IMG/VR virus record: IMGVR_UViG_2778261540_000002
Direction: 5' to 3' (one strand)
Source: a virus
Taxonomy: Duplodnaviria > Heunggongvirae > Uroviricota > Caudoviricetes
DNA: 9,576 bases
Shown here: positions 1-9,576 of the stretch, piece after piece
How positions within the stretch are numbered: position 1 is the first letter of the stretch
Layout of the letters: every line of letters begins with the position of its first letter
Notes under the pieces: model-generated
Databases searched by the model: none
What the model saw: only the letters and a program-made list of their open reading frames with translations
What the model was told of the DNA's origin: nothing
Made by a program: the position numbers and the translations under genes

Positions 1-3000
1 TGACGGTGTTTTCCGCGTTACCAGCAGCGTTAACGGTGATGGTGTGTCCATGTGAACCAATCGCAACGGAGTGCGTATGAGCACCAATACCGACAGTATG
101 CGCGTGTGCACCTGCAGATGCTGCTGTGCCGGACAGTGAATGGCTATGATTACCATCTGTACTGGTATTCGCTAACCACCCCGTAGACATACCTACTGAG
201 CCTTGTACACCCCAGGTATTTTGACCTGAGCTTGTATAACCATATTGATAAGTATCTTTAAAAACACTGGGGTTAAATCGACGGCCATCTCTATGGCTGT
301 GATTACCAGCTGCATTCGTGCTGCCACTTAAACTATGGGTATGCGCACCAGTGTTATTCGTGGATTTAGTGCCGTAATCAAACGACGATGTGGTTTTCGT
401 CCCCAAATCCGTACTGGATGCGCTGGCGCTGTGGGTGTGCGATTTAATGCCGTCCTGTTCCTGAGACAATACGGCCCGACCACTGGCAGGTTTGCCCTTA
501 ATCGTCCAGCCACGCATATCAGGGATCACGCCTGACGGATAAGCCGCTGCAAGTTTCGGGTATGCAGATTTGTCAAAAGCCTGCCCCTGCATCAGGGCAT
601 AGCCAGACGGAACGGTATCTGATGGCCACGGGATTGGTGCGCCGACTGGGTAGCTTTCTGGTGGAAGATTTTTCGAGGTATAAACTTCTGCCCAGTCTTC
701 CTCAAAACCATAACCGTCTCTTGAAGAACGGTAGAACAGACCACCATTTCTGTAATGCGCCTTCATCTGCAAGGTCCGGCAACTTCCGACTCCGGTATAG
801 AAGTTAACCAGAATATAGCTGTCGCCAGAGCGGGTGACATTATAAGCGCCTGATTCGGCATTCCAGGGAACGCCACCATCCGCATCGGCATATGTATCCG
901 TTGCCCTTCTGGCAAAAGCAGCCACATGCGCGGCGGTTAAAGTAATATCTTTGGAACCATCAAACTCAACACCAGAAACCCGTCTTGGCGTTTGCAGCTT
1001 TGTTGCTGTTAATGCATTACCGTTCAGACTTGCGGACAGTTTGGTTCCAATAACCAGTTCGCCGGTTGCGTTATCAATAGCAAACGGTCTTAATGTATTC
1101 CAGCCACCATAAACATCACCTTGATTGGTAAGCAGCAGGTAAGTTTTAGCGCCATCATTACGCCATAATGCCCCATACTCCCCACCTATCATTCGAATCT
1201 GATTACCACCACACGCTACAATTTCGTCTGTGGCAAAAAGTTTTTTGCACGACAAGTTATCGTTAACGATTAACGAATGAGACTCATAAAAACCACGCCC
1301 ACTCTTAAAATCAAGGATAACGTCCGCCGCGATACATTCAGTCGCCGGATTTGTTGCCCCAAACTTATAGGTCGTATCATTAACAACGAGATCAGCACCA
1401 GGTGCGGATATTGACAGGCCATCTTCGATAAACGCAAAAACAGGGAAAGCAGCGCCATCAACATAGAACACAGAGCGCAAATCATCGCCCTTATTACTCA
1501 TCATTATTGAGTGGATGGCTCGTTCATTGTTTTGATATTGCCAGAACATTCCATAAGCATAACGCCCCCTGTCAGTCCAGCCACCAGGCATAACAAATCC
1601 GTTAAACTCGCAGTTATTCATCGGATCGCCTGCGGTTCGCGTTGCCGTGGTGATAATGACCCTTGATGCCAGTTCGCTTACTGAGCCAGCAGAACGCATA
1701 ACAACAACAGGGTAATATTTTCCAGATGTTGCACCTGCAGGAGCGTTAACCCACACATAACGCATACCACGCTTATCAGCAAAGTCTGTTTTACTGACCG
1801 CGTTAATGTTGTTCAGGAAGCGTCCCTTATCGGGTATATCAGCGCCGTTCTGGTCTTTCTGCAGACGTTTCTCTGCATTGTCATAGGCTGATTTTACTGC
1901 CTTTGGCGTTGCCGCCAGCGTTTCAGACGTACTGTTGGTCGCACTGCTGAGCTGTACTATCCCCTTTTTCGTCGTACTTGCATCCTCAAGCGCCACGGCG
2001 GATGCAATATCCTCTGCCCGTTTTGCCGCTGTCTCGGCGCGCGTTGCCGCGGATTCCGCCGTACTTTTGCTCTGTGCTGCCGCCGTCGCACTGCCAGCTG
2101 CCTCTGTCGCCTTCGTGGATGCTGTCGTGGCGCTGCCCTTCGCTGCGGAAGCAGACCTCGCTGCTGCGCTGGCCTGTTCAGTGGCTTCGCCAGCCTTCGT
2201 TGTGGCTGTTGAAGCAGACGATGCGGCACTTTCTGCCGATTTTCCGGCGGCGGTGGCACTGGCTGAGGCCTGCCCGGCACTTGTTGACGCGGCACTGGCA
2301 GACGACGCAGCCGCTGTTGTTGAGCCTGCCGCAGCCGAGGCGCTCTGTCCCGCTGCCGTTTCAGAAGACCTGGCGTTTGTCTCAGACGTCTTTGCCGCCT
2401 TCGCGGAATTGCCTGCCGCCGTTGCCGAGGAAGCGGCACTACTGGCGCTTGATGATGCGTTCGTTTCTGATGATTTCGCTGCCTCTTTTGAGGCCGCCGC
2501 ATCCCGGGCTGAGGTGGCTGCTTCTGACGCCTTCGTGGTCGCGGCGGATGCAGAAGTGGCTGCTGATTGTTGTGACGCTGCCGCATTCGTTTCTGACGTT
2601 TTCGCCGCAGCGGCACTGGTAGCTGCCGCGCTTTTTGAGGACTCTGCAGCAGCAGCACTTTTCGATGCTTCACTGGCCTTTGTTGATGCCGTTCCTGCGC
2701 TGGAAGATGCTGACTGAGCCGACGACGCGGCCTGTCCGGCTGACGTGCTGGCTGCGCGTGCTGAGCCTGCAGCATCAGTCGCATGGGTTGCCGCCTCACG
2801 GGCTGATGTGCCGGCATCGCTGGCTGACTTCTTCGCGGCTGCCGTGTTCTGTGCCACCGCGGACGCGTTACGCGCCACCTCTTCCACCATCAGTTCAAAA
2901 CGGCGCAGTGCCTCAGGACGGGCATCATCCTCCGTCATGGCACCGAGAAAATCATTCAGCGTACCGGGTCGGGAATCTTCATACACGGTGATGGTCCCGG

Positions 3001-3214
3001 CATGTGACGGCGGGAATCCCTCCACCAACAGAATAACGCTGTACTGCCCGTACTCAACGTCCATGCTGTAACGCCCGGCTTCATCCGGATTTTCTGAGGC
3101 CAGCGTGTTCACCACCACCGTGGTGCTGTTACGTTTTGCTTTCAGCTGGATTGTGCAGTTCTGTACCGGTTTTCCTGTGCCGTCTTTCAGTACACCTGAA
3201 ATCTTTACTGCCAT
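1..3214 (-). CDS. stf: Side tail fibre protein, StfR/lambda Stf-like; 3' end truncated by the window edge (about 1071 codons in window, stop codon lies beyond position 1)
   Basis: ATG at 3214-3212 preceded by GGGGTG. My translation begins [81 protein letters not shown], the conserved lambda Stf N-terminal domain. Spot translations at 1801-1920 ([39 protein letters not shown]), 1441-1500 ([22 protein letters not shown]), 601-720 ([34 protein letters not shown]) and 1-360 (HxH-rich end ...[19 protein letters not shown]) stay in one frame. The ORF track lists no complete minus-strand ORF in this frame below 3214, consistent with one open frame running off the edge. Confidence 0.9.
1930..2870 (-). 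repeat. Low-complexity Ala/Ser/Thr-rich coding repeats forming the fibre shaft (motifs such as [30 protein letters not shown]), GC-rich
   Basis: Direct translation of the stf frame. At DNA level, near-repeats are visible, e.g. gtctcagacgtctttgccgcc (about 2380), gtttctgatgatttcgctgcc (about 2462) and gtttctgacgttttcgccgcagc (about 2590). This region produces the long Ala-rich and Arg/Gln/Pro-rich alternate-frame ORFs in the track. Boundaries are approximate. Confidence 0.6.
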
Positions 3215-3223
3215 ATTCACCCC

Positions 3224-3252
3224 ACAAAAAAGCCCGCCTGAACCGGCGGGCT
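3224..3252 (-). terminator. Putative rho-independent terminator downstream of lom: 8-bp GC-rich stem, 6-nt loop, then a run of 6 U on the minus-strand transcript
   Basis: Plus strand 3231-3238 agcccgcc and 3245-3252 ggcgggct are perfect reverse complements with loop tgaacc; an A-run at 3226-3231 on plus is the U-tract on minus. It sits between the lom stop (3279-3281) and the stf start (3214). Confidence 0.6.
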
Positions 3253-3278: not shown

Positions 3279-3878
3279 TCAGAATTTATAACCGACACCC
3301 ACGATGAAACCGTCAGTGCGCCAGTCACCACTGCCGGAGCCTTCATAAGCAATATCAATGGCCACGGATTCGGTCGGGTTAAACTGCACGCCAGCCCCCC
3401 ACGCCAGAGACGTGTTGCTGTGGCGACCGTCATCACTTCCGGTCAGCACATCGTGCTTTTTCCCCTTGTTGTCAGTTACGCGAAGATAATCCCCGGAGAA
3501 AGTCGACACACGGCTGTAAGCTACACCCGCCATCGCATACGCGCTGAACCATTCATTCACGCGCACAGACGGCCCCGCCATTACGCTGAACCAGCGGTTA
3601 CGAACGGAATCTTCATGCCAGCGGGTATCGCTGTAACGGGTCAGCTGGCGATTCTTGTCTCCTGCATAGCTGAATGACGTCACCAGCCCCAGTGTGTCCG
3701 TAAACTCATAACGGTATTTCACGTTAATCCCGTTCAGATCATCACTGCCGGGGACGTTCGTCGAGGCATGAAGATACCCCGCGCTCAGCGTGGACTGATG
3801 TTCAGACGCCCATGCAGGCGCACCGGATACGGCCAGACAAATGGCTGCGGACAAAATTGCTGCACAAACTTTACGCAT
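3279..3878 (-). CDS. lom: Outer-membrane beta-barrel protein of the Ail/Lom/PagC/OmpX family (Lom homologue), 199 aa, with N-terminal signal peptide
   Basis: ORF with ATG at 3878-3876 preceded by AGAGG. N-terminus MRKVCAAILSAAICLAVSGAPAWA is a signal peptide with an AxA cleavage site. C-terminus ...IAYEGSGSGDWRTDGFIVGVGYKF ends in an aromatic residue typical of outer-membrane barrels and matches my recollection of the lambda Lom C-terminus. Position immediately downstream of J is as in lambda. Confidence 0.9.
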   Translation of the reverse strand: MRKVCAAILSAAICLAVSGAPAWASEHQSTLSAGYLHASTNVPGSDDLNGINVKYRYEFTDTLGLVTSFSYAGDKNRQLTRYSDTRWHEDSVRNRWFSVMAGPSVRVNEWFSAYAMAGVAYSRVSTFSGDYLRVTDNKGKKHDVLTGSDDGRHSNTSLAWGAGVQFNPTESVAIDIAYEGSGSGDWRTDGFIVGVGYKF

Positions 3879-3900: not shown

Positions 3901-3930
3901 ATAAAAAAGGCGTCATTCCTGACGCCCTTT
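3901..3930 (-). terminator. Putative rho-independent terminator after J (tJ-like): 7-bp stem ggcgtca/tgacgcc, 4-nt loop, then UUUUUU on the minus-strand transcript
   Basis: Plus 3909-3915 ggcgtca and 3920-3926 tgacgcc are reverse complements with loop ttcc; A-run 3903-3908 on plus is the U-tract on minus. Located in the 70-bp gap between the J stop (3949) and the lom start (3878). Confidence 0.65.
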
Positions 3931-3948: not shown

Positions 3949-6900
3949 TCAACGAATACTGATGCCGGAAGCGGCTTTTTTGGTCACAATCACCGTACAG
4001 TCGGTGATATTGCCTGCCCCCTGATTGCCTTTCTGGAAAATCTTAAACTCCAGAGTGACGCTTCCCCTGCCACTCGGCATATCAATAACTGCACTGTAAC
4101 TACCGGGAATGGCCCCTTTAGTTTCTCTGGATGCGATTAATACGCCGTTTTTGCGAACTTCAAAACCATAACCCGTGTATCGCGTGCCTCCTGGGTTATT
4201 TCCGCTCCCCGGATCGTCATACGCTATACCGTTAAAAATAATGGGCGGAATAATAATCTGGCGGTCAAAGTTATGATCATCGCTGATGGTGACTGTAACC
4301 GTACCGTTTGGTGTTTCCGTGTTACCCCACGTACCGACTTTTTTCGGGAAGGCTTTTGATACAGCTTTAACGAAATCTCCTCTGACCTGGGTCGCCTCCA
4401 GCATGCCCTTAATCGTACAGTTCTGGTTAATCGTGACATTGTTGAGCGTTCCTGAGTTCGCATTCACACTGCCACTGATATCCGCATTTTTCGCCGTCAG
4501 TCTCCCGTCTGATGTCAGGGAAAATGCCGGAGGATTACCGCCGCTGGTAATGGTGGGGGCCGTCAGGCGTTTCAGGAACACTTCATTCATGAATATCTGA
4601 TCGCCCTGACCAACAAACATCGGCTTTGTGTTGCCATTCGCAGGATTAATCATCGCAATCCTGTCTGCTGCCAGCAGCACCTGACTCTGCATGCCGTCAG
4701 GGGTGTTCTCAATACCGGCACCGATACCCGCAATATAAAGGCGTCCGTCCTGCATCTGCTGCAGCTTCACTGCCCACATGCTGTTCAGGTTATTATTTGT
4801 ATCAACCTGAACCTTCTGTATCTGCTGGATCGCTGCACTCTGGTCTTCCAGTTTCTTATTGACGGTCTGTGTTATTTCATTGCTGACATCCGTTATGGAC
4901 GTCCTGATTTCAGTCAGGTCAGGCGCAAGCTGACCGTTATCAATCTGCGTCCACAGCTCCTGAGCCAGATGGGTTTTCCCTATCTCGCCTTTGAAAAAAT
5001 CCAGATAGCCTGATGCATCATCACTCGGCTGACCGACAGCCTCCACGAATGCCGATTTGCCAACGGTGTTCACACTGCGAACGTAAAAATAATAATCATG
5101 GCCCGGTTTGATATTGATACTGGCGGCTATCCAGTACAGTGCCGTACCAAGATAACGCGCGCTGGTTTCAACCTGCCTGATATCCGCAATCCGTTTTTCC
5201 GAGAACCAGAACTCAAACTGTACCGTCGGGTCATAAACCGCAAGATGCGGCGTGGCGGTTATCTGAAAATAGCCCGGCGTCAGCTCAATCCGCGACGGCG
5301 CTGCCGGTGCGGCAATCCGGAACGATACCGACGCCGGATCGCCCTGCTGCCCCCACGCATTTACTGCCCGGACTGTCAGCCTGTAGTTCCCCAGAGCCAG
5401 TTGTGTGAAGCGGTAAGTGGTTTCCGTCGTCCGGGCCGTGCTGACCAGCCGCTCACGGCCGTCATCCGCTGCCACGGTCAGGCGAAGCAGGAAGCTCACG
5501 CCCTTCACCACCTTCGGCGTGTCCCAGCGCGCCAGCACCTGGTATTCCCCGCTGTCTGCGGTGACTTCTGCGGTCAGGTGCTGCACCGCTGGCGGCGTGA
5601 CACCATTTACCGTGCCGCTCTGGTCGCCGTCAAAGTGCGCCCCGTTATCCACGATGGCCTCTTTTTCCGGTACATGCTGCACGGCGGTGATGGCATACGT
5701 GCCGTCGTCGTTCTCACGGATACTCACGCAGCGGAACAGGCGCTGGCGCAACGTCGGCAGCTTCAGCCCCCATACGCTGTATTCAGCAACGCCGTCAGGA
5801 ACACGGCTCACTTTCACCTTCACGCCGTCGGTGACGGACTGAACCTCCACGCTGACCGGACTCCCCTGCCCGTCAACCAGGCTTATCAGCGTGGTGCCGG
5901 AAGATGGCAGCGTGATTTCACGGTCGAGCGTCAGCGTCCGGGTCTGGCTGTTTACCGCCAGCACGCGCCCGCCGGTGCGGATACCGGCATAGTCATCATC
6001 GCAGATTTCAATGACATCGCCCGGTACATGGCGAAGCCCTTCGGCACCCACGCTGAAGTCCACGGTCTGCGTTTCCAGCAGTTCTGTTTTAATCAGCCAC
6101 AGCCCGGCGCGGTGTGCCTGCCCCCGGCTGGTACAGCCAAAAGCATCCATCTTCGTGACGTTACGACCGTAACGGGCAATGGCCTGCGTGTCCTCCACAA
6201 GCTCTGTCGCCGTCTCCCAGCCGTTATTCGGGTCAATCCAGTTCACCTCAACGGCATTATGGCGGTCCTTCAGGGCGCTGAAGCTGTAGCGGAACGGCGC
6301 ACCATCATCCGGCATCACCACATTACTGCGGTTATAGGTCCACACCTTATCCGACGGTCGGTCCTGCACGAACGTCAGCGTCTGCCCGTTCCATACCGGC
6401 ATACAGCGCATCGCAGAGCAGAAATCACTGAGCACATCCCACGCCTTGCGCTGTGTGGTCAGGTACGCATTACAGGTGATGCGCGGCTCCGTGCCGCCAA
6501 AACCGTCCGGCACCGACTGATCGCAATGCTGGCCGATGACATACAGCGCCCATTTGTCCACATCCGCCGCACCAAGACGTTTCCCCATGCCGTAGCGCGG
6601 ATGGGTCAGCATATCCCACAGACACCAGGCCATGTTGTTGCTGTATGCTGGCTTAAACGTTCCGTCCCAGATACCGCTGTATTGCCGCGTCTGCGGGTTA
6701 TAGTTCGACGGCACCTGCAGAATGCGCCCGCGCAGATGATAATTACGGCTCACCTGCTGGCTGCCGAACTGCTCCGAATCCACCTGCACGCCGACCAGTG
6801 CCGTGTTCGGGTAGCACTGTTTCACATCGATGATTTCGGTGTATGACGACCAGAGCGTTTTGTTCTGCAGCTGGTCTGTGGTGCTGTCCGGCGTCATCCT

Positions 6901-7446
6901 GCGCATCCGTATATTGAACGGGCGCGGCGGCAGGTTACCCACCACCACCGAGGCCAGATACTGCGAGGTGGTTTTGCCCTTAATGGTGATGTCTTTTTCC
7001 GTCACCCAGCCACCATTACGCTGGATCTGAACCAGCAGGCGGACTTCCGACGGATTCCGGTCCCCCTTTGAGGTGGTTTCCACCAGTGCCTGCACGCCGA
7101 AGGTAAAGCGCAGACGGTCGATGTTTGCAGACGTAATGGTGCGGGTGATCGGCGTGTCATATTTCACTTCCGTACCCAGCACCGTCTCGGAGCCGGAGGA
7201 TTCAAACCCCTCCGGCGGTGTCTGCTCCTGCTCACCGGCACGGAACACCACCGTGACACCGGAGATGTTGGTATTCCCCTCAGTGTCCAGCACCGGCGTA
7301 CTGTTCAGCAGCACGCTTTTTAATCCATCCACCGGACCTTCAACCGGCCCTTCGCTGATGGCATCGATCACACTCAGCAGCTGCGTGGACTTCAGGTTGT
7401 CCTTCGCTTCGCGCGGGGTATGCCCCTTACTGCTGCCTTTACCCAT
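3949..7446 (-). CDS. J: Tail tip / central tail fibre host-specificity protein J (lambda gpJ homologue), 1165 aa
   Basis: Complete 1165-aa ORF. N-terminus [34 protein letters not shown]... and most of the first 800 or so residues match lambda J as I recall it. GGAG lies 8 nt upstream of the ATG. Gene order I then J then lom is conserved with lambda. Confidence 0.95.
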
Positions 7447-7506: not shown

Positions 7507-8178
7507 TCAGCGACCAATCACCACAACCTGACCACCGTCCCCTTCGTCTGCCGTGCTGATCTCCTGAGAAACCACGCGAGACCCCACGCGCATTTCCCCG
7601 TACAGAACAGGCAGAACATTGCCCTGGGCAACCATGTTATCCAGTGAGGAGAAATAGGTGTTCTGCTTACCGTTATCCGTTGTCTGTGTACGGGGAGTTC
7701 TGGCTTTCGGTGCCAGCATCTGCGCCACACCACCGAGCACCATACTGGCACCGAGAGAAAACAGGATGCCGGTCATACCACCGGTCCCAATGGCTGCCCC
7801 CCATGCTGCAAGGGTGGCTCCGGCGGTAAAGAATGATCCGGCAATGGCGGCAGCCCCCAGGACAATCTGGAATACGCCACCTGACTTGGCCCCGGCGACT
7901 CTGGGAACAATATGAATCACAGCGCCATCAGGCAGAGTCTCATGTAACTGCGCCGTTAACCCGGACGTGCTGACGTCCCGCCCGGCAATCCGTACCTGAT
8001 ACCAGCCGTCGCTCAGTTTCTGACGAAACGCCGGGAGCTGTGTGGCCAGTGCCCGGATGGCTTCAGCCCCCGTTTTCACACGAAGGTCGATGCGGCGACC
8101 AAATCGTTGTAAATCCCCGTAAAGGCAGATGCGCGCCATGCCCGGTGACGCCAGAGGGAGTGTGTGCGTCGCTGCCAT
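7507..8178 (-). CDS. I: Tail assembly protein I (lambda gpI homologue), 223 aa
   Basis: 223-aa ORF, the same length as lambda I as I recall it. Begins MAATHTLPLASPGMARICLYGDLQRFGRRIDLRV. Contains a long Gly/Ala-rich hydrophobic segment (GGVFQIVLGAAAIAGSFFTAGATLAAWGAAIGTGGMTGILFSLGASMVLGG). Overlaps the 3' end of K by 103 bp in another frame, as in lambda. Confidence 0.9.
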   Translation of the reverse strand: MAATHTLPLASPGMARICLYGDLQRFGRRIDLRVKTGAEAIRALATQLPAFRQKLSDGWYQVRIAGRDVSTSGLTAQLHETLPDGAVIHIVPRVAGAKSGGVFQIVLGAAAIAGSFFTAGATLAAWGAAIGTGGMTGILFSLGASMVLGGVAQMLAPKARTPRTQTTDNGKQNTYFSSLDNMVAQGNVLPVLYGEMRVGSRVVSQEISTADEGDGGQVVVIGR

Positions 8179-8819
8179 TTGTCGGTGTACCTCTCTCGTT
8201 TGCTCAGTTGTTCAGGAATATGGTGCAGCAGCTCGCCGTCGCCGCAGTAAATTGCGGCGTGATTCGGCACCGATGAACCAAAACAGCACAGCAGCACATC
8301 GCCCGGCTGTGCCGCTGACAACGGCACCTGATACAGCCCCGTCGCCTCCAGATTATCCAGATAGAGATTCTGGCCGTTACGCCACCAGTCATCCTCACGA
8401 TAAAAGTCCGGCATCTCAATCCCCGCCAGATGATAAGCATCCCGGAACAGTGTGTAACAGTCCGTCACACCGTGCTCAAAGCGCCGCCCGGTGAGATGCG
8501 GCACACAGCGGAACTTATGAATCGTCCCCCGGCAGACCAGCCACCACGGCAAATCACTCTGCACCTGCAGCCGCCGGTCGGCCTCACTCAGCCAGGGCAG
8601 ACCACCGGGGTGGCTGTGGACCAGCGCCACAATCTCACCCTGCATTTCTGCCTGCAGCCAGTCTTCCGGCGACATACGGAAATACGCCTCCGGCTCACCG
8701 GAGATATTCACGCAGGGAAAATATCTTTCCCCCTCCGGCGTGCTTACCACGAAGCCGCACGACTCCGCTGGCGCACATCGCCGGGCGTGCGCCAGAATCG
8801 CTGATTCTGTCTGTGTCAT
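8076..8819 (-). CDS. K: Tail assembly protein K (lambda gpK homologue) with a JAMM/MPN+ metalloprotease motif and a C-terminal NlpC/P60-like Cys/His region. Maximal ORF is 247 aa; the internal ATG at 8675 would give the 199-aa form I recall as the classical lambda annotation
   Basis: ORF MTQTESAILAHARRCAPAESCGFVVSTPEGERYF... HSHPGGLPWLSEAD fits the JAMM signature HxH-x7-S-xx-D. The downstream GVTDCYTLFRDAYH ... HHIPEQ provides candidate catalytic Cys and His. ATG at 8819 lies 5 nt after the L stop codon with only a weak SD; the internal ATG at 8675 has GGAGG 11 nt upstream. Confidence 0.85.
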   Translation of the reverse strand: MTQTESAILAHARRCAPAESCGFVVSTPEGERYFPCVNISGEPEAYFRMSPEDWLQAEMQGEIVALVHSHPGGLPWLSEADRRLQVQSDLPWWLVCRGTIHKFRCVPHLTGRRFEHGVTDCYTLFRDAYHLAGIEMPDFYREDDWWRNGQNLYLDNLEATGLYQVPLSAAQPGDVLLCCFGSSVPNHAAIYCGDGELLHHIPEQLSKRERYTDKWQRRTHSLWRHRAWRASAFTGIYNDLVAASTFV

Positions 8820-8824
8820 GGGAT

Positions 8825-9559
8825 TTACTGCGAAAGTTTGTTAATGGAAAGGAAGCCGCCAAAGTTGCCGACGTTATTGCGGAACTTACAACCGCTCAGG
8901 CATTTGCTGCATTTATCCTTCGTGATATCGGACGTTGGCTGGTCATATTCATCCGCGACAGCCGGACCGCTATAACCGCACTCGTCACCGCGATAGGTCC
9001 AGGTGCAGGTGTTGGCCAGCATGATACGTCCCGGAAAAACAGCGCCATCCGTTTCCGTCGGCGTGGACAGTACAAAGGAGGCACTCACCGCGCTCAGTTC
9101 GCTGCACTGCTCAATGCGCCAGCGGCTGATCACCTCCTGCTCCGGATCGGCGTAACTGTTTCCGTTGACGAAGTTCACCGCATCCAGAAAACGGGCGTAA
9201 ACCTTACGCCGGACCACCGTTCCGCCGACCAGACTCTGCATATCTTCCGCCATCCCGGTGACCATACCGTACAGGTTAGAAACCGTCAGCGTGGGGCGCG
9301 TACTGGTGCCTTTGCCATTCAGTTCAAAACCGCTCCCCTGAATGGGATACGGCTGATACTGTCGCCCCTGCCAGGTGACCGGCTCACCTTTTTCGTTCTG
9401 CTCATTACAGAAAAAATAACGTTCTCCACCGACCTCTGTCAGGTCGATTTCCCAGAGCACCACGCTGGCCGACTGCTCCGCACGGGTGCATTCATTCAGT
9501 GTTTCCTGCCGGATATCCGTATCCTGAGCCGTCTGCAGGTTCAGTGAGTCCCCCGGCAT
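8825..9559 (-). CDS. L: Tail tip protein L (lambda gpL homologue), about 244 aa from the ATG at 9559; C-terminal Cys cluster
   Basis: Translation ...DIRQETLNECTRAEQSASVVLWEIDLTEVGGERYFFCNEQNEKGEPVTWQGRQYQPYPIQGSGFELNGKG... matches lambda L as I recall it. The track's ORF begins at a GTG (9571) shown as M; the first ATG is at 9559-9557 and overlaps a TGA stop of the upstream frame (ATGA), as at the lambda M/L junction. C-terminus carries four Cys (GDECGY, DKCSKCLSGCKF). Confidence 0.85.
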   Translation of the reverse strand: MPGDSLNLQTAQDTDIRQETLNECTRAEQSASVVLWEIDLTEVGGERYFFCNEQNEKGEPVTWQGRQYQPYPIQGSGFELNGKGTSTRPTLTVSNLYGMVTGMAEDMQSLVGGTVVRRKVYARFLDAVNFVNGNSYADPEQEVISRWRIEQCSELSAVSASFVLSTPTETDGAVFPGRIMLANTCTWTYRGDECGYSGPAVADEYDQPTSDITKDKCSKCLSGCKFRNNVGNFGGFLSINKLSQ

Positions 9560-9576
9560 CAGGTGCGGCACTTTTG
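9559..9576 (-). CDS. M: Last five codons plus stop of the upstream tail gene (M-like by synteny); 5' part lies outside the window
   Basis: Minus-strand reading of 9576-9559 gives Q K C R T then TGA, with the stop overlapping the L ATG. Identity as M is by position only. Confidence 0.4.
   Translation of the reverse strand, partial: QKCRT

Follow-up and report, generated by a model that had tools for sequence, protein, structure and literature searches.

Gene J of lambda-like phages encodes the tail tip protein, and the J gene found here raises two questions: from where its divergent C-terminal third is derived, and which outer-membrane receptor that part of the protein would recognize. The gene lies in a 9,576-nt stretch of DNA, the whole of which was analyzed and is hereafter called the window. 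An earlier note, made from the letters of this DNA, had described J as mosaic, with about 800 lambda-like N-terminal residues followed by a divergent C-terminal third, and had proposed that the receptor differs from that of lambda.

Gene J and its neighbors

J is an intact gene for a tail tip protein (central tail fibre) of the lambda family. Pfam models, each above its curated cut-off, follow one another in the order FNIII-A_GpJ (aa 86-207), Phage-tail_3 (aa 330-498), Ig_J (aa 610-714), Ig_J_second (aa 716-818), Phage_Tail_Tip (aa 872-1000) and Ig_GpJ_C (aa 1029-1164, E = 4e-25), the last of which carries the Pfam label 'C-terminal receptor binding domain'; aa 819-871 were covered by no Pfam model. 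This is the domain order of a lambda-type J protein, i.e., a hub, two FNIII/Ig-like domains, a helical shaft, a straight-fibre beta prism and a C-terminal Ig-like receptor-binding domain (RBD). The naming of gpJ parts (FNIII, alpha-helical shaft, central straight fibre, Ig-like RBD) follows PMC11101478. A search of PDB sequences with J returned lambda gpJ (8xcj/8xck/8iyk, E = 1e-95 to 1e-96) and 'A8 gpJ 713' (9wca, E = 4e-104), with matches spanning the straight fibre and the RBD.

The genes of the window lie on the minus strand and make up the distal part of a lambda-like tail operon, in which L-K-I-J are followed by lom and stf; their order and sizes agree with those in lambda, 434 and PhiR34_1 (Table 1). 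The order and sizes of I and K are those of lambda I and 434 K, and Lom is annotated at the matching position in PhiR34_1, phiSTEC1575-Stx2k and lambda. The stf frame, which encodes a shaft rich in Ala and Ser and a tip of His-rich repeats, aligns with the 3405-nt 'side tail fiber protein Stf' gene of PhiR34_1.

Table 1. Coordinates of genes and J modules in the window, with amino acid identity of J segments to lambda J
Feature	Coordinates	Strand	Description	Identity to lambda J
stf, side tail fibre	1..3220	-	open frame, 1073 codons, off the low-coordinate end of the window	
lom (Ail/Lom outer-membrane protein)	3279..3878	-	199-aa ORF, directly downstream of J	
J (tip attachment protein / central tail fibre)	3949..7446	-	single intact ORF, 1165 aa + stop	
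434-type receptor-binding domain, aa 1002-1165 + stop	3949..4443	-	predicted OmpC binder	38% (aa 1002-1165)
Conserved lower central-straight-fibre block, aa 949-1001	4444..4602	-	holds the crossover from 21 type to 434 type	95% (aa 961-1001)
Phage-21-type shaft module, aa ~786-959	4570..5089	-	end of second Ig-like domain, alpha-helical shaft, upper central straight fibre	50.9% (aa 786-960)
Most divergent stretch, aa 821-900 (inside aa 786-960)	4747..4986	-	alpha-helical shaft variant, 28 residues longer than lambda/434	24%, 28 extra residues
Backbone module, aa 1-785	5090..7446	-	hub + fibronectin/Ig-like domains, common to lambda, 434 and 21	98.2%
I, tail tip	7507..8178	-	223-aa ORF, upstream of J	
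K, tail tip	8076..8819	-	247-aa ORF, upstream of J	
L, tail gene	8825..9518	-	without its first two codons, fused in frame to the portal fragment	
Portal fragment	9514..9576			

At the other end of the window, all database matches stop 58 nt before the high-coordinate end. A lambda-like portal gene of 1602 nt contains an internal piece (nt ~983-1045) that matches positions 9514-9576 with 100% identity and in the same orientation. The portal protein reads ...VPHLMPGDSLNLQTAQDTDNGY and ...LNLQTAQDTDNGY. Read in the frame of L, the portal codons CAG GAT ACG GAT (...AQDTD) run into ATC CGG CAG (IRQ...), and the translation passes from ...LNLQTAQDTD directly to IRQETLNEC..., which is tail protein L from codon 4. 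The junction is in frame, and the portal and L matches overlap there by a 5-nt microhomology, GGATA (9514-9518). In the standard lambda order, the genes for protease/scaffold, decoration, major capsid, head-tail joining, tail tube, tape measure and M lie between portal and L. The junction has the signature of a deletion from mid-portal to L, and because the fusion is in frame and shows microhomology, the source element is probably a defective prophage without most head and tail genes. The same portal::L junction occurred in none of 5426 complete genomes. As just 58 nt of portal evidence are inside the window, the junction might also be an assembly artefact.

Three modules in J and their breakpoints

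J is 82% identical overall (BLASTP) to lambda J (NP_040600), and the lengths given in the earlier note for the two proteins, 1165 and 1132 aa, were both right. The lambda-like N-terminal part, which had been put at about 800 residues, corresponds to aa 1-785 with 98.2% identity. The divergence that the earlier note had placed at 3952-4990 was accurately located and equals aa 820-1165; at the nucleotide level, the departure from lambda begins slightly earlier, near window position 5089. A partly conserved block had been noticed within the divergent part, and it is real (aa 957-1001, 92-96% identity to lambda). With regard to the last 150 or so residues, said to be unlike the LamB-binding end of lambda, it had been proposed that a pairwise identity above 90% would speak against the idea; only 37% was found for aa 1016-1165.

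The changes along the gene are abrupt. From one 50-nt bin to the next, nucleotide identity to lambda falls from 78-98% to just 6%, and GC3 shifts from 0.73 in the J backbone to 0.55 in the C-terminal third. Because of these step-like drops and the GC3 shift, the transitions are due to module exchange rather than to gradual drift or chance. The mosaic nature of J was thus borne out, and it could be sharpened to three parts, for each of which a different sequenced phage provides a match of 92-100% in nucleotides.

The last 1.25 kb of J was aligned at the nucleotide level with lambda, 434 and 21, and sites matching one phage only were scored. Sites matching only 21 extend from window position 5089 down to about 4501, and 434-specific bases are found from about 4525 to the stop codon. 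The change from 21-only to 434-only sites occurs at about 4490-4570, inside the conserved block. When window positions 3949-4990 were compared by megablast with 50,697 phage records, phage 21 and its relatives matched query nt 1-574 (21 at 92%), phage 434 and its relatives matched query nt 364-1042 (434 at 95%), and the match to lambda was restricted to the shared block in the middle (query nt 364-596).

The backbone (aa 1-785) is 98.2%, 98.1% and 97.7% identical to that of lambda, 434 and 21, respectively; nt 1-2350 of J show 96% nucleotide identity to lambda, and backbone GC is 54-65%. In the shaft module, nucleotide identity per 50-nt bin is 92-100% to 21 versus 6-72% to lambda and 434, and at the protein level identity over aa 786-960 is 96.6% to 21 J versus 51% to lambda and 434. 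The alignment with 21 is gap-free over these residues, whereas 28 additional residues are present compared with lambda, visible as alignment gaps of 21 and 7 residues versus lambda/434. In the most divergent stretch (aa 821-900), identity is 24% to lambda and 25% to 434. The conserved block has 88-92% nucleotide identity to lambda and 434 and 76-90% to phage 21, and its aa 961-1001 are 90-95% identical to all three proteins.

The end of the gene, from about 4525 to the stop codon, is 90-100% identical in nucleotides to 434, with 28-72% for lambda and 33-82% for 21. The last ~160 aa match 434 J and not the lambda or 21 types: amino acid identity of the RBD is 97% to 434 J, 38-39% to lambda, 43-44% to 21 and 44% to A8. 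Five RBD residues differ from 434, namely N1047D, R1127G, I1136V, Q1138H and G1143R (window residue, position, 434 residue). GC content of the RBD is 47-49%, versus 56% for the lambda RBD.

The three-module make-up of J, its breakpoints and domain architecture, and the prevalence reported below are demonstrated here. As to its origin, we suggest that J was assembled by homologous recombination from three modules circulating among lambdoid phages of E. coli: a common hub and Ig/FNIII backbone (aa 1-785), a phage-21-type helical shaft and upper straight fibre that exceed those of lambda by 28 residues (aa ~786-960), and a phage-434-type C-terminal Ig-like receptor-binding domain (aa 1002-1165). 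The crossover between the second and the third module is located within the conserved block, at aa ~950-1000.

Fibre structure and predicted receptor

In the cryo-EM structure of lambda gpJ, four bottom loops of the Ig-like RBD insert into LamB, and receptor binding is relayed upward while the shaft refolds (PMC11101478). In window J, aa 821-900 align to the lambda helical shaft and have hydrophobic residues 3-4 apart, and the 28 extra residues equal four heptads. An AF2 monomer model of aa 801-1165 (based on a 16-sequence alignment) had low confidence, with a mean pLDDT of 45.7 and a pTM of 0.35; it placed helices at J residues 812-823, 826-836 and 844-887 (fragment residues 12-23, 26-36 and 44-87), followed by beta strands. 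Only its secondary structure was used, as the fibre is an intertwined trimer, and because of the low confidence the model lends no structural support beyond that. Based on the 98% hub identity to lambda J and on the solved lambda structures, we infer that J would be a homotrimer by which the tail tip is closed and the fibre extended. By analogy with lambda, three copies of J would form the fibre and would dock with their three terminal domains on an outer-membrane porin trimer; the binding would then be relayed up the straight fibre and the helical shaft until the tail tip opens for DNA ejection. Any effect of the longer shaft would be a presumptive one.

The receptor of lambda is LamB (PMC11101478; PMC12502783), and phage 434, as well as lambda with the 434 gene, uses OmpC rather than LamB (PMC11101478; PMC12502783, citing Fuerst and Bingham 1978). 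When the J proteins of lambda and 434 were compared with each other, 19 differences were found in lambda aa 1-973 (98% identity), and identity was 38% in aa 974-1132. This natural experiment therefore places the receptor determinant in the last module, in which window J and 434 J agree at 97%. Lambda particles are likewise redirected to OmpC when natural C-termini of gpJ are grafted at aa 964 (PMC11338833). Judged by its sequence, the window RBD is the classical h434 host-range module. Neither this nor the wide distribution of the allele had been recognized in the earlier note. Because the terminal domain is of the 434 (h434) type, OmpC is predicted, and the receptor of window J is very probably not LamB and most likely OmpC. 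The idea of a receptor different from that of lambda is thus supported by homology (last 164 aa, 97% to 434 J and 38% to lambda J). Our main reading, to which we assign a probability of roughly 0.85, is that J is a three-module recombinant, an intact tail tip gene with a 434-type end and OmpC as its predicted receptor.

The literature on phages with this exact J allele was searched for a receptor experiment, and none was found in the papers that could be read. The SNIPE paper covered ManYZ dependence and not outer-membrane receptors, a qPCR paper using mEp332 gave no receptor, the genome announcement for phages 21 and 434 did not discuss receptors, and a 2026 receptor-prediction preprint did not cover lambda-type RBDs.

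Several other explanations have to be weighed against this reading. The C-terminal divergence might reflect gradual drift under host-range selection in one lineage; rapid evolution is known for such ends of phage fibres that bind the receptor, and the conserved block between the divergent parts might be viewed as an island under constraint. However, identity changes in steps within 50-nt bins, GC3 changes at the module boundary, and the shaft matches 21 and the RBD 434 (92-100% in nucleotides) precisely where 21 and 434 differ from each other. The modules also occur independently in genomes (shaft type in 3562, RBD type in 2092, both in 1164). Gradual divergence, which we regard as extremely improbable, was rejected on the basis of the step-like boundaries and the separate, near-identical donors. 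The choice of porin is a more delicate matter. Phage 21 uses LamB, and a single mutation in its J adds the use of OmpC, with further mutations adding OmpF (PMC11336670). The A8 RBD binds OmpC (PMC11338833) and is nevertheless 81.5% identical to the RBD of LamB-using phage 21. Because of the one-mutation gain of OmpC by phage 21 and of this 81.5% identity despite differing receptors, sequence class is a strong guide to the receptor but not an absolute one. In addition, the gpJ chimeras A8 and 1A2 differ in the OmpC alleles they accept (PMC11338833), and the five substitutions relative to 434 could alter the accepted OmpC alleles in the window protein. It is conceivable, therefore, that through these substitutions the 434-like end uses another porin (LamB, OmpF or other), or certain OmpC alleles only. 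We consider this unlikely: the RBD is 97% identical over 164 aa to a classical OmpC-using RBD and is 100% identical in nucleotides in isolated phages, and the window residues at the five positions are the majority residues in 16 close homologues (a small set biased to relatives of the window). Moreover, evolved variants of 21 and lambda that add receptors at first keep the ancestral one (PMC11336670). A similarly doubtful, more speculative proposal is that the 21-type shaft combined with the substituted 434-type RBD might give a porin-allele range or triggering unlike that of 434 (for example, OmpC variants closed to 434, or dual porin use), and/or that the J of a deleted prophage might serve as a host-range reservoir for superinfecting lambdoid phages through conserved-block recombination.

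A different concern is whether this copy of J is in use. The chances are about even that it is a relic in a defective prophage that makes no functional fibre, in which case its receptor specificity would have no current phenotype. Judging by the in-frame portal::L fusion at 9514-9518, the genes that lie between portal and L have been lost, and because J appears to sit in a defective prophage, this copy may not currently serve in virions. However, J, I, K, lom and stf are all intact ORFs, and J is 99.9% identical in nucleotides to that of a sequenced Stx2k phage, with its C-terminal third identical to that of isolated phages, which means that decay has not begun. It should also be noted that the portal sequence amounts to 58 nt and may be an assembly artefact. 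The relic explanation concerns expression and not protein identity, and it is compatible with J being a three-module recombinant with a 434-type, predicted OmpC-binding end.

Relatives of J and its prevalence in E. coli

Phage 434 resembles the window at the receptor-binding end. Its J (UMO75286.1, the h434 allele) is 97% identical in the last 164 aa and 98% in the backbone aa 1-785, its RBD module has 90-100% nucleotide identity to the window per 50-nt bin, and the gene order K-I-J-lom-stf is that of the window. Unlike that of window J, however, its shaft is of the short, lambda-like type (aa 786-960 51% identical, 28 residues fewer, 1137 aa in total), and five substitutions separate the two RBDs. 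J of phage 21 (UMO75436.1) has 96.6% identity over aa 786-960, including the 28-residue longer helical shaft, and 97.7% in the backbone, but only 43% in the RBD; the receptor of phage 21 is LamB (PMC11336670). Lambda J (NP_040600; PDB 8iyk, 8xck, 8xcj) resembles window J in aa 1-785 (98%), in the Pfam order and in the lower straight-fibre block, and differs from it by the shorter shaft, the LamB-binding RBD (38% identical) and the length of 1132 aa.

The complete three-module allele is already known; it has been sequenced and annotated and is very common. Over the full 3498 nt, such alleles have 95-99.9% nucleotide identity. The 'host specificity protein J' of phiSTEC1575-Stx2k (WCJ00196.1) is 99.9% identical in nucleotides over the whole gene, and J of Kati, PhiR42_1, vB_EcoS-569R4, ev243, ev099, cdtI and Ayreon is the same three-module allele with point differences only. 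Identities of 95-99% were found in vB_EcoS-569R4, PhiR42_1, ev243, Kati, PhiR34_1, mEp332, ev099, Ayreon, phi458 and cdtI. In Kati and PhiR42_1 the C-terminal 1042 nt are 100% identical, and over the whole gene phiSTEC1575-Stx2k, PhiR34_1 and mEp332 reach 97-99.9%; for PhiR34_1 and mEp332, K-12 MG1655 is listed as host. Because J genes that are near-identical, or identical in the C-terminal part, are present in Kati, PhiR42_1, phiSTEC1575-Stx2k, PhiR34_1 and mEp332, the allele works in isolated phages. The copies of the phiSTEC1575-Stx2k group are located in complete phage genomes, whereas the window copy is apparently in a deleted prophage.

Of 5426 complete E. coli genomes, 3562 (66%) contain the 21-type shaft segment and 2092 (39%) the 434-type RBD; both were present on one stretch in 1164 genomes, about a fifth. 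Prophage regions with 99.9% identity to the whole 9.5-kb window are present in many strains. Window J is thus a typical version among E. coli prophages. With the long 21-type shaft in 66% of the complete genomes, the short one of lambda is in the minority, and neither this shaft nor the LamB-type end of lambda is the commonest version in these prophages. The analysis assigns a prophage tail tip to the 434/OmpC host-range class and not to that of lambda/LamB, which has little significance beyond correct annotation. The class assignment helps to predict which strains could be entered by a phage or transducing particle with window J.

The arrangement of J also has a man-made counterpart. In the Eligo lambda gpJ chimeras A8 and 1A2, a natural C-terminus was joined to a lambda-type backbone in the conserved block (lambda aa 964), and the resulting particles use OmpC (PMC11338833). 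These chimeras were constructed, whereas the combination in window J is natural; recombination between natural J genes thus takes place in the very block that engineers have chosen for retargeting lambda particles. The A8 RBD sequence was read from the PDB alignment of 9wca. The possibility that A8 is of the 434 type was ruled out, as the RBD in 9wca belongs to the phage-21 sequence type, with 81.5% identity to 21 and 44% to the window RBD.

Receptor choice by the two tail fibres

OmpC is the predicted receptor to which J, the central tail fibre, would bind by its receptor-binding domain (RBD). The porin used, however, can differ among members of one RBD sequence class: the RBDs of A8, an engineered lambda gpJ chimera (PDB 9wca), and of phage 21 J (L005:1045-4524) are 81.5% identical, yet A8 binds OmpC whereas phage 21 uses LamB. 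Downstream of the lom gene lies the side tail fibre gene stf, whose product has a long Ala/Ser-rich shaft followed by a tip of His-rich repeats (GAHTHS, GNHSHS, GAHAHT and GSHGHT). The literature gives OmpC as the binding target of Ur-lambda Stf (PMC11338833). If this is also true for the Stf encoded here, both fibres of the element would target the same porin.

Features of the lambda-like tail region
Feature	Window position	Strand	Description
stf	1-3220	minus	Ur-lambda-type full-length side tail fibre gene, downstream of lom; frame reaches the window edge
Terminator-like hairpin with T-run	3231-3252	minus	Coding strand, after lom
Second hairpin	3909-3926	plus	Between J and lom, on the strand opposite to coding
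portal::L fusion	9514-9576 (junction 9514-9518)	minus	Tail gene L joined to part of the interior of a lambda-like portal gene

Shaft length and residue 952 of J

The long helical-shaft segment of the phage 21 type was detected in 3562 of the 5426 complete E. coli genomes (66%), and the short shaft common to lambda and 434 therefore looks like the minority form. Residue 952 of J (about window 4591-4593), which lies within an 11-residue segment and aligns with F924 of lambda J, is Phe. Gifsy prophages are reported to have Ile at this site and thereby to escape triggering of the abortive-infection nuclease HepS (PMC13043305). With Phe kept at this site, the J protein in the window would be predicted to belong to the HepS-triggering type.

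Hairpins and the portal::L junction

One hairpin lies on either side of lom; the counts showed no excess over the shuffle expectation. At the other end of the window, the reading frame of L is continuous with the portal fragment, L being entered at its third or fourth codon, and the junction coincides with a 5-nt microhomology, GGATA. This junction was found in none of the 5426 complete E. coli genomes. The in-frame fusion points to a deletion of the head and tail genes between portal and L; thus, the source prophage is probably defective.
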